DNA from: Escherichia coli
GTDB lineage: Bacteria > Pseudomonadota > Gammaproteobacteria > Enterobacterales > Enterobacteriaceae
Assembly (NCBI RefSeq): GCF_030013205.1
Contig: NZ_CP122648.1
Length of the DNA: 64,000 nt
Reading direction: 5' to 3' (one strand)
Shown here one piece after another: positions 57,001 to 60,000 of the stretch. Numbering within the stretch: the stretch's first letter is position 1; each line of letters starts with the position of its first letter. The position numbers are program-made.

Positions 57001-60000
57001 CAATATGACTGATACTATTCAAATGGTAAGGTAGAGCCTTGGGGAGGATTCTATGATGCAAACAATCAATTGCAAATGGACACGAATCAGCCTGGACATG
57101 AGTTTACATTCAAGCGAAGGAAACCATAGGTATGAGGTATTTTCTCTTTATATTTATAACAATCCCCCTTATCTCTGGAGGTCATATGAGTAATGATAGC
57201 GAAAAGATAATATCAACATATTCGCTCAATTTTTTATCACCAGATGATGTGAGGAAAGAAGAACTTAAGGCATCACAAGGTGATAGTGATGCTGCATTTA
57301 AATTGTACAAATATTACCTTTTTTGCGAGCCAAAATCATACAGAAAACAGCACGAATGGTTAATAATATCGGCAAATAATGGAAATGCTATAGCTCAATA
57401 TAACTTATCAAGAGAACTTGAGTCAGAAGGAAAAGTAGATGAATCAATACAATGGCTGAAAAAATCAGCGGAACATGGTAATAATTATGCACAATATCAG
57501 ATGTCAAAATATTTATTAAAAATAGGTGATATTAGAGGATCGGAATATTATCTAAACTTATCTGCGGATAACGGATGTGTATTTGCAATAAAAGATATTA
57601 TCAAAAATATGATGGATAGTGGAAGGTACGATGACGCCCTCATTTGGGTTGAAAAATTGAAAAAATTGTATCCTGACACAAATACCGAACTTTACATACA
57701 AAAAATAACGCAGAAAAAAAGCAATCCAAATAATAATTATATATAATTACTCGCACAGAGTTACAGTATTGCAAGAAATATATCTAGCATATAAAGTCGC
57801 CGCCAGTAAAGATAAAGTACTGTGTAATCCTTCCTCCCATATAGGGGTAAAAACTTAGCATCCAGTGCCCTCGACTTAATTTTTAGTATTTTCTCTGTGA
57901 AGTGACACTTCGTAGGATTCAGTTCATGTTTACCAGAAAAAAGGTGGTCATTCTGGTGGTCTTGATAATCTCGATTTTTTGTTTTAGCTTTCCAATCAGC
58001 CAATTAATGGCTACGGCGATCCCAGTCAGAGGAGCCAAATTTTAGTTTTGAGACATCTCTATGAGTCTCAAGACAGTTAAAAAATAAAAATTATTTTTAC
58101 CCGGTTACCTTGTAAAAAAGTGACCGGGTTTTTTGATTTCTGTGTTTCGTGCGCTTAATCGAGTCTCACGCTTCAGTGAGCAAATTGCCCCCCAACAGAC
58201 ATCACGATTCGCAAGGTCAAAAACTTCGTTCTGTGAAGTACCGTACAAAGGTATAGAGAAAAATACCTTATGCTGGATGTCGCTGTCGCGTTTTTATCGG
58301 GAAACTATGCGTAATTGCCACTTTGCCTTCTGTAATCAGAAAAAGAAGAACTGGAATTTTAATAAATATTATTTCTCTGGGAATGGGGATTTTTTATAAT
58401 CAATATGACGAGTTGAACATTATATTTTTATAATGATTATATGAGATTAAAGAAATCTGCCATAAAGACAGATTTCTTTAAAATATAATTAGAGATTTGC
58501 GACGTTATGATAAACTTTTTGTACATCGTCGTCATCTTCAAGGGCATCAACAAGCCCTTCAAAGATTTCTAAATCTTCTGGGGAAAGCTCAACTTCAGAT
58601 TGAGCAATCATTTCTAATTCTGTTGTTGAGAACTCAGTGATTCCAGCTGCTTTTAGAGCCGCGATTCCTTTATGAAGGTCAGTAGGTTCAGTATAAATAA
58701 CAATATTACCTTCTTCTTCAGTTACATCACGAACATCAACTTCAGCTTCAAGTAAAATTTCAAAAATATGGTCAGGGTCTGTTCCTTTAAATACAATCAC
58801 ACCCGTATTGTCAAACATATAGCTGACAGAACCTGCCGCTCCGATATTGCCGCCTTTTTTATTGAAAATTGTGCGAACGTTAGCAATCGTACGGTTAACA
58901 TTGGAAGTCAAGGTCTCAGCGATAATCATTGAGCCATTAGGACCAAAGCCTTCATAACGGCCCTGCACGAACGTTTCATCTCCGCCGCCTTTGGCTTTAT
59001 CAATTGCTTTATCAATAACATGCTTTGGAACTTGTGCCTGCTTTGCTCGTTCAATAACGAATTTTAAAGATGTGTTTAATTCTGGATCGGGTTCACCTTG
59101 TTTGGCAGCGGCATAGATTTCTACACCGAATTTTGCATAAATTTTAGACGTCGCACCGTCTTTAGCCGTTTTTTTAGCAACAATATTGGCCCATTTACGT
59201 CCCACTGGAATGATCTCCTCGAAAATTTATTTACATTACTGGTAAATCGTTAACATGTGTTAATTCGGCATATTATATCATAACAGGAAAAATCTCGTCT
59301 ATTAGAAATAAAAATATTCTAAAGTCATAATCTTATATTTAATTTCATAAAAAATTATATTGTTGGCGGGATTTTTTATAATTGTGTTTTGAAAGCATAC
59401 TTGCTTTTAATATGTGGGAATTATTAAGACGATAATAAAACTCGCATCTGTCCAAGAAAGCAAACAGCCCGCGTTTATTGCAGGCTATTTGCCAGATGTC
59501 TTACTTACTCCTTCACATCTATTTCTGATAAGAAGGTTCAGAACTTATTATCGGAACGGCGGCTCATTAAAGGTTCGTAATTTACGTGAATGCAGTCGGT
59601 CGCCTTCTGCGCGCAGCAAATCGATCGCCCGAATGCCAATTTGCAGGTGTTCGGAAATAGCGCCTTCATAAAAACGGTTAGCCTGACCGGGAAGTTTAAT
59701 CTCACCATGTAATGGTTTATCTGAAACACACAGTAGTGTCCCGTATGGCACGCGGAAACGATATCCTTGCGCGGCAATGGTTGCACTTTCCATATCAATT
59801 GCTACGGCCCGGCTTAAGTTAAAACGAAGTGCAGAAGCTGAGTAACGTAATTCCCAGTTCCTGTCATCTGTGGTTACCACAGTACCAGTACGTAGCCGCT
59901 GTTTGACTTCCTCACCGGGCCTGCCGCTGACTAACTTGGTGGCGTCATAAAGCGCACGTTGCACTTCAGCAATACTCGGAATAGGAATATCGGGCGGCAG

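Follow-up and report, generated by a model that had tools for sequence, protein, structure and literature searches.

Gene layout at the locus

The window analyzed here is a stretch of 64,000 nucleotides (nt) from the Escherichia coli contig NZ_CP122648.1 (RefSeq assembly GCF_030013205.1). It contains an open reading frame (ORF) encoding a Sel1-like repeat protein, which follows the variable toxin tip of an Rhs protein and is the candidate immunity protein of that tip. A sequence-only reading of the window had placed an ORF of 204 residues (aa) at 57132–57746 on the plus strand, and this is what we find: the frame opens with an ATG and its product has the N-terminus MRYFLFIFITIPLISGG. The gene has the following features.

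57132–57746, plus strand: Sel1-like repeat protein, candidate immunity protein, 204 aa from the first ATG (ORF list, homology, fold and pairing)
57132–57182, plus strand: leader M1–G17, putative Sec/signal-peptidase-I signal peptide (hydropathy and leaders of relatives)
57177–57188, plus strand: GGAGG at 57177–57181, a 4-nt spacer and an internal ATG at 57186–57188 (Met19) (sequence and RefSeq start)
57216–57722, plus strand: Sel1/TPR-like repeat domain, residues 29–197, five helix pairs (AlphaFold2 model, PDB sequence and fold matches)
57714–57720, plus strand: A7 homopolymer near the 3' end (allele comparison)

The earlier reading had put the ORF directly after the toxin, which holds for intact alleles, where 2 nt separate the two frames, but not for the window, where the gap is 119–120 nt. 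It had also pointed to a second ATG at 57183 preceded by a perfect GGAGG ribosome-binding site. The GGAGG is indeed perfect, but the position requires correction, as 57183–57185 read CAT, the codon of His18, and the ATG occupies 57186–57188. RefSeq starts the gene at 57186, giving a product of 186 aa, and this start is used in all eight of the annotated E. coli records examined. Promoter-like sites between the toxin and the ORF do not exceed chance expectation, and co-transcription of the ORF with rhs is assumed for this reason. A terminator-like hairpin at 57164–57181 is present on the minus strand only.

The Sel1-like repeat domain

The sequence-only reading had recognized at least three Sel1/TPR-like repeats in the protein, a description supported by sequence matches in the PDB, by five predicted helix pairs and by matches to Sel1 folds. 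A phmmer search of PDB sequences returned the Sel1-repeat proteins 6deh (E = 2.1e-12) and 4bwr (E = 4.4e-12), followed by 8sxq, 6onw, 6ur7 and 6ork at E ≤ 4e-5. The AlphaFold2 model of the 204-aa protein has a predicted local distance difference test score (pLDDT) of 86.5 and consists of a leader helix (residues 4–15) at low confidence, a linker and then the repeats, with the five helix pairs contained within residues 37–197 at pLDDT values that are mostly above 85. The best Foldseek matches to the model are crystal structures of Sel1-repeat proteins (probability 1.0, TM-scores 0.42–0.51).

An exhaustive search of representative proteins matched 6657 library proteins at E ≤ 1e-3, and it was by this search that the family-specific relatives were picked out of thousands of generic Sel1 proteins. 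A word-indexed homolog search with the same query returned near-identical E. coli proteins only. An NCBIfam match of the ORF to MerG was rejected as spurious (its 23 bits fall far short of the cutoff of 350), and an NCBIfam TPR match was below threshold.

The Rhs protein and its toxin tip

The gene upstream of the Sel1 gene encodes an Rhs core protein that ends prematurely in the window, with the features given below.

53020–57012, plus strand: ORF of the Rhs core protein, cut short at 1330 aa (ORF list; RefSeq 'RHS repeat-associated core domain-containing protein')
56695–56709, plus strand: DPLGL motif closing the Rhs core and marking the usual boundary with the variable tip (translation; the TIGR03696 Rhs_assc_core match ends here)
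56710–57129, plus strand: toxin tip, 139 codons and a TAG stop at 57127–57129 (family alignment, AlphaFold2 and Foldseek)
57010–57012, plus strand: nonsense codon TGA in place of the TGG of Trp101 (alignment to strain N3 and to six further alleles)
57013–57129, plus strand: in-frame untranslated remnant of the C-terminal β-strand region of the toxin, YYSNGKVEPWGGFYDANNQLQMDTNQPGHEFTFKRRKP followed by the stop codon (strands E99–134 of the model)

The intact Rhs allele is 1393 aa long. Residues 1–300 match the NCBIfam RHS_core model with E = 2.5e-174, and the protein matches Pfam DUF6531 with E = 1e-20. Delivery by a type VI secretion system (T6SS) is only assumed for the protein described here, by analogy with known E. 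coli Rhs proteins, since it has no significant similarity to PAAR. Neither vgrG nor eagR lies upstream of its gene, where the neighbors are an integrase fragment and genes for a helix-turn-helix protein and an unknown protein.

Against Pfam the toxin tip stayed at E = 0.07 or above and matched no peptidase family, including the Peptidase_C80 and caspase profiles, and it had no match among PDB sequences. Its AlphaFold2 model (pLDDT 94.5), in contrast to these sequence searches, allowed a fold class to be proposed. Foldseek ranked the cysteine protease domains (CPDs) of TcdA, TcdB and MARTX first (3ho6, 3gcd, 3pee, 3fzy and 3eeb), followed by caspases, legumain, the glycosylphosphatidylinositol (GPI) transamidase and CHAT; the scores are moderate (probability 0.97–1.0, E of about 1e-3, TM-score 0.47). 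An alignment of ten toxin sequences shows C72, G75, F81, A82, W101, G129 and F134 to be invariant; the nearly invariant H32 and G33 are missing from one sequence alone, a fragment. His32 is encoded at 56803–56805 and Cys72 at 56923–56925, and motifs of the same His-then-Cys order occur at the loci L011, L043 and L045 and at 24 genome loci. The toxin domains of L003, L011 and L043 likewise follow a D-P-x-G-L boundary. The tip is thus confidently modeled as a small clan-CD (CPD/caspase-like) His-Cys protease-like domain, with protease activity as a prediction from the model.

Through the TGA codon the toxin loses its last 39 residues, which comprise all four C-terminal strands of the model. Because the invariant Trp101 and these strands are lost, the toxin copy of the window strain is very probably inactive.

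Pairing of the toxin and the Sel1 protein

We examined loci containing relatives of the toxin tip, loci of the Sel1 relatives P0014, P0018, P0117, P0118 and P0141, and loci from a scan of a genome collection with the toxin alignment. A Sel1 homolog lies directly after a toxin-tip homolog in at least ten independent pairs, some from metagenomic contigs and others from genomes of Treponema, Zoogloeaceae and Luteimonas. These pairs are found at L003 (a marine contig with two pairs), L011 (a GC-rich Rhs locus), L012, L043/44, L045/46, L013 (Treponema), L015 (Zoogloeaceae) and L016 (Luteimonas aquatica), and their toxin tips are 39–55% identical. At four further diderm loci (L020, L022, L032 and L036) the toxin is followed by related helical-repeat partners of the exported type. 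The family extends over Proteobacteria, Spirochaetes, Verrucomicrobia and metagenomic contigs of unknown origin, and across phyla the two partners stay together although their carrier and neighboring genes vary.

The immunity role proposed by the earlier reading would have been refuted by homologs that occur without adjacent toxin genes. In the loci examined the pairing recurs, and the single exception, P0014, sits in an Rhs-associated orphan array; the candidacy is supported by this outcome. Another orphan array, at positions 1–8139 of L003, has the typical Rhs orphan layout, with genes for Imm26 and a pentapeptide-repeat protein in addition to two toxin/Sel1 pairs. Both P0014 (L010, 1402–2490) and P0018 (L011, 2111–3136) contain three tandem immunity modules behind a single leader, and an extra, leaderless single-module copy lies directly downstream of P0018 (L011, 3168–3548). 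This suggests that immunity genes of the present family fuse and duplicate.

In monoderm (Gram-positive) genomes (L017, L021, L024 and L026–L029; L018, L023, L030, L031 and L033) the protease domain forms the C-terminal end of large proteins, one of which, the carrier of L021, was tested and proved to be a phage minor-capsid protein (PF06152, E = 3e-101). The partner genes at these loci encode either leaderless proteins of about 95–130 aa that end in '...YHVEKYDL...' or a zinc-ribbon protein; Pfam has no name for either partner family.

Carriers and alleles in E. coli

The Sel1 gene is present in 91 of 5426 complete E. coli genomes as a single chromosomal copy, and toxin-tip DNA occurs once, likewise on the chromosome, in the same 91 genomes. 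In every carrier record inspected the gene lies directly after an Rhs gene, and it remains intact even beside Rhs genes that are partial, frameshifted or interrupted by a stop codon. A plasmid collection contained no close homolog of the protein. Short-query searches found the TGA toxin allele in 18 of the 91 carriers, all of them swine isolates; strain N3 and the six other alleles examined have TGG at 57010–57012.

The homopolymer near the 3' end also varies. Most strains have A8, giving the tail ...QKKKQSK before the stop, and the A7 form, found by short-query searches in 14 of the 91 carriers (all swine enterotoxigenic E. coli (ETEC)/O139), gives ...QKKSNPNNNYI. The product is 186 or 204 aa long with A7 (from the internal or the first start, respectively) and 182/200 or 224 aa with the other run lengths, which include A9 in one protein cluster. 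The run could be slippage-prone or could be a lineage marker.

The leader and its predicted export

The first 17 residues had been described as hydrophobic and signal-peptide-like, and they prove to be so, both in a crude test and by comparison with relatives that have leaders at the same position. The leader has an n-region MR (Arg2) and a hydrophobic core of 11–13 residues, of which F4–I14 have a mean Kyte–Doolittle hydropathy of 2.88 (the 11-residue maximum). In the cleavage region Pro12 is at −6, Ser15 at −3, Gly17 at −1 and His18 at +1. A positive n-region, a core of 7–15 residues and small residues at −3 and −1, as expected for Sec and signal peptidase I, are thus all present under a crude rule of our own, which is not SignalP. 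An 18-codon extension would pass this rule by chance with a probability of about 6e-4 under a dinucleotide Markov null, and of the 88 six-frame ORFs of the window that reach 100 aa only two pass it, the Sel1 ORF being one of them.

A hydrophobic N-terminal leader in register with that of E. coli is present in all 12 aligned toxin-linked partners. Since these partners all have a leader at the same position, the E. coli leader is inherited and not a product of chance. The relatives P0014, P0118, L013, L016, L020 and L022 have a lipobox, and the forms observed among the partners are ILGGC, FVGC, MIGC, LVGC, LFSC and AVAAC. The lipobox pattern [LVI][ASTVI][GAS]C is absent from the end of the E. 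coli leader, which reads L-I-S-G-G-H; the first Cys of the protein is residue 65. The junctions of the E. coli protein and its two closest relatives, P0014 and P0018, align residue for residue, with ...PLISGG-H-MSNDSE in E. coli and ...AIILGGCQMNDEP in P0014, whose leader ends in the lipobox ILGGC|QMNDE. As His replaces the lipobox Cys, the E. coli protein would be at most a substrate of signal peptidase I (SGG|H) and not a lipoprotein. A relative of this kind is P0018, with the junction ...SPAMEA-HSMNNDEP, which has an A-x-A site of the non-lipoprotein, signal-peptidase-I type and the same His at +1; its n-region probably begins where start codon and toxin stop overlap (ATGA).

The periplasmic placement suggested by the sequence-only reading is therefore much better supported than before: the leader is common to the toxin-linked diderm partners, the E. 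coli version lacks the lipobox Cys, and export of the protein is a prediction from its own leader and those of its relatives. On the same basis, a functional signal peptide is probably missing from the gene as RefSeq starts it, at 57186. All alleles examined keep the leader frame intact, with the full hydrophobic core and a canonical −3/−1 site, and the sole polymorphism in the leader among eight alleles is a synonymous change at 57164 (ATC to ATT). A selection test on the leader was without power, with one substitution in 54 nt of leader against 14 in 561 nt among the E. coli alleles.

Proposed mechanism and alternatives

The ORF, the repeat fold, the homology of the leader, the gene pairing and the fold class of the toxin are the observations from which we infer a mechanism of export, cleavage, binding and neutralization, with T6SS delivery of the toxin as its counterpart. 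Translation would begin at the ATG at 57132 and would be coupled, in intact alleles, to the rhs stop that lies 2 nt before it. The leader of 17 residues would route the protein through Sec, and signal peptidase I would probably cut after Ser15-Gly16-Gly17. In the periplasm, the soluble Sel1-like repeat domain would bind and block the clan-CD His-Cys toxin injected by neighboring cells. We consider it on balance probable that the Sel1 gene encodes, as this full model has it, the cognate immunity protein of the upstream Rhs tip and that this protein is exported to the periplasm against a protease-like toxin. Because the toxin of the window strain itself is truncated by the nonsense codon, the gene would serve there only as a defense against kin with an intact toxin.

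Several observations weigh against parts of this model. The Pfam threshold for Sel1 (PF08238) was not reached, the best match being E = 0.72 for residues 87–117, and all TPR-type Pfam matches are below threshold (E > 0.1). The PAAR motif of the Rhs protein is weak (E = 0.28). The leader was scored with our own rule and, judged from the alignment, the ancestral mode of export or anchoring is changed in E. coli, where the lipobox Cys is now His; the diversity of the E. coli alleles (at most 1.2%) is too low for a test of selection on the leader. The first ATG has a weak and distant Shine–Dalgarno sequence (AAGGA, 10 nt, −5.7 kcal/mol), the internal ATG forms a stronger duplex with the anti-Shine–Dalgarno sequence (−10.0 kcal/mol), and RefSeq annotates the short form. 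Finally, the protease domain can evidently be neutralized in the cytoplasm as well, because the monoderm partners have no leader.

The choice of start codon decides between export and two alternatives to it. The start that includes the leader overlaps the toxin stop (ATGA) in L011, L013, L020, L022, L032 and L043 and lies 0–3 nt from it in L003 and L016, and it is because this start always overlaps the toxin stop of the diderm loci, or falls within 3 nt of it, that we argue it to be the one used. The RefSeq start carries little weight, as automated start calling also picked an internal Met in the marine homolog L003b, in which a leader is obvious. Masking of the internal Shine–Dalgarno sequence by RNA structure was considered and rejected, the fold of 57105–57215 being no better than those of shuffled sequences (z = 0.45). 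It is unlikely, in our estimate, that one gene yields two isoforms, an exported form from the first ATG and a leaderless cytoplasmic form from the ATG at 57186, so that immunity would operate in both compartments. Such an arrangement would account for the strong internal Shine–Dalgarno sequences of E. coli (−10.0 kcal/mol), P0014 (−10.0), P0018 (−9.3) and L003b (−6.5), whose first starts have weak ones or none, and the GGAGG of P0018 is derived from other codons (M-E-A) than those of E. coli and P0014 (G-G). However, GGAGG is easily produced by the Gly-Gly or Glu-Ala codons of signal-peptide c-regions. Across 16 diderm partner genes, start codons preceded by a Shine–Dalgarno sequence (ΔG ≤ −6) are overrepresented immediately behind the leader, where they make up 7 of 544 codons compared with 8 of 2295 in the remainder (odds ratio 3.7; p = 0.014 in a Fisher test), although this p value ignores the relatedness of the genes and the composition of the c-region, and nine of the 16 genes have no such internal start. 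Met19 may be structural rather than a start, because 'MN[DNE]' opens each internal module of P0014 and Met thus recurs at the module starts (QMNDE, KMNNG and QMNEG). Cytoplasmic activity of the toxin is made plausible by its pairing with leaderless partners in monoderms, and immunity to one toxin in two compartments has a precedent in EsxX with ExiAB and ExiCD (PMC12258717). Two isoforms, if real, would fit a toxin that is met both by leaderless, presumably cytoplasmic partners (monoderm phage-capsid carriers) and by exported ones (diderm Rhs carriers).

That the protein is cytoplasmic only, with the working gene starting at 57186 and the leader a decaying relic of a lipoprotein signal, appears distinctly unlikely. 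The start in the eight annotated records, the perfect GGAGG at 57186 against the weak sequence at 57132 and the loss of the lipobox Cys would all agree with it, as would the nonsense codon in the rhs gene of the window, which abolishes coupling to the first start. A decaying relic is, however, difficult to reconcile with a leader that is intact in all alleles examined and altered by a synonymous change alone, with P0018 as a relative of the signal-peptidase-I type that shares the +1 His, with the export leaders that all diderm relatives carry and with the conserved stop/start junction that the first ATG retains with the toxin; the start call itself looks wrong in L003b and adds little. In the window allele the coupling to the first start is lost, since the nonsense codon ends rhs translation 119–120 nt before 57132, and the internal start may dominate in this strain. 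It is very improbable that the protein has no immunity function and is a Sel1-repeat adaptor, a chaperone or an unrelated periplasmic protein that travels with the Rhs tip. Sel1-like repeats are generic protein-binding scaffolds and Pfam gives no immunity-family match for the protein, but its gene is on the same strand directly after the tip with coupled junctions, which is the standard position of an immunity gene, and the partnership persists across phyla despite changing carriers and neighbors. Moreover, the gene stays intact beside Rhs pseudogenes and is present in orphan arrays, as is typical of immunity genes, and export would make no sense for a chaperone of an Rhs protein that is loaded in the cytoplasm.

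Genomic neighborhood

The window is chromosomal and matches, at 100% identity, the region beside yeeN-amn-shiA of swine ETEC strains. The island lies in a variable region, as cbl and not yeeN is found downstream in other strains, and no tRNA gene flanks it within 48000–64000. Upstream of the Rhs gene, 50318–52498 contains a frameshifted integrase fragment and an SfsB-like helix-turn-helix protein (51852–52040), as well as a 153-aa protein (52037–52498) with no family match. On the other side, shiA (shikimate transporter; minus strand, 61104–62419) is split into ORFs at 61104–62135 and 62183–62419; as strain N3 has one intact gene of 1317 nt, shiA is probably a frameshift pseudogene in the lineage of the window. 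A glycosyltransferase family 9 ORF at 62734–63639 (window segment 62734–63999) has its 3' end cut by IS1 from about position 63650, and RefSeq records its C-terminus as missing.

Comparison with known systems

Pseudomonas aeruginosa PA5086–PA5088 (Tli5 family) are periplasmic Sel1-like immunity proteins of the T6SS phospholipase PldB, an effector that itself acts in the periplasm. The toxin of that system is thus a phospholipase D, unlike the tip described here. PA5088 has been called an immunity protein (PMC7216683), and the structure of PA5087 (5jkp) served as the modeling template for Sel1E of Klebsiella pneumoniae (PMC7108748). As 5jkp is neither among the 30 PDB sequence matches of our protein at E ≤ 10 nor among its top 50 fold matches, the relation to PA5087 is at the level of the repeat class only. 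Sel1E neutralizes the T6SS effector VgrG4, so that immunity by a Sel1-repeat protein has been tested experimentally (PMC7108748). Like the present protein, Sel1E has Sel1-like repeats and is encoded downstream of a toxin, in its case one of a T6SS; localization predictions for it were inconclusive, and it was reported to be without a lipoprotein signal (PMC7108748). Its toxin differs, being the C-terminal DUF2345 of a VgrG, which induces reactive oxygen species, rather than a CPD-like Rhs tip. Exported or lipoprotein immunity proteins are standard for T6SS effectors that act in the periplasm, such as Tle1/Tli1 of enteroaggregative E. coli (PMC6730261). Tli1 is likewise an exported immunity protein beside its effector, and several of the Sel1 relatives are clear lipoproteins; the E. 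coli Sel1 protein differs in having no lipobox Cys, and the fold and the toxin class differ as well.

The CPDs of MARTX, TcdA and TcdB (peptidase C80, clan CD) are the best fold matches of the toxin and share with it the order of His and Cys and the motifs GHG and (L/F)xxC(N)xG. In MARTX and Tcd toxins the CPD is a self-processing module activated by inositol hexakisphosphate (InsP6) and not the toxic payload. The tip is also smaller, about 139 aa compared with about 200–250 aa. Caspase-like tips of polymorphic toxins ('Tox-Caspase') were catalogued in 2012 by Zhang et al. (PMC3482391); the associated immunity families, Imm36 and Imm57, are not Sel1 proteins (PMC3482391). Our literature searches found no paper on the present toxin or immunity protein, and the toxin/immunity family is a previously undescribed one of the ordinary toxin/antidote type.

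Implications

In the strain of the window the toxin is very probably dead and the defense alone remains. For the family as a whole, the pairing of the protease domain with leaderless partners in Gram-positive bacteria raises the question of where and on what the protease acts. The pairs described here define a family that combines a minimal CPD/caspase-like protease tip with a Sel1-repeat partner of the exported type, in which the toxin is predicted to meet its immunity protein in the periplasm, and this narrows the search for the substrate of the toxin.

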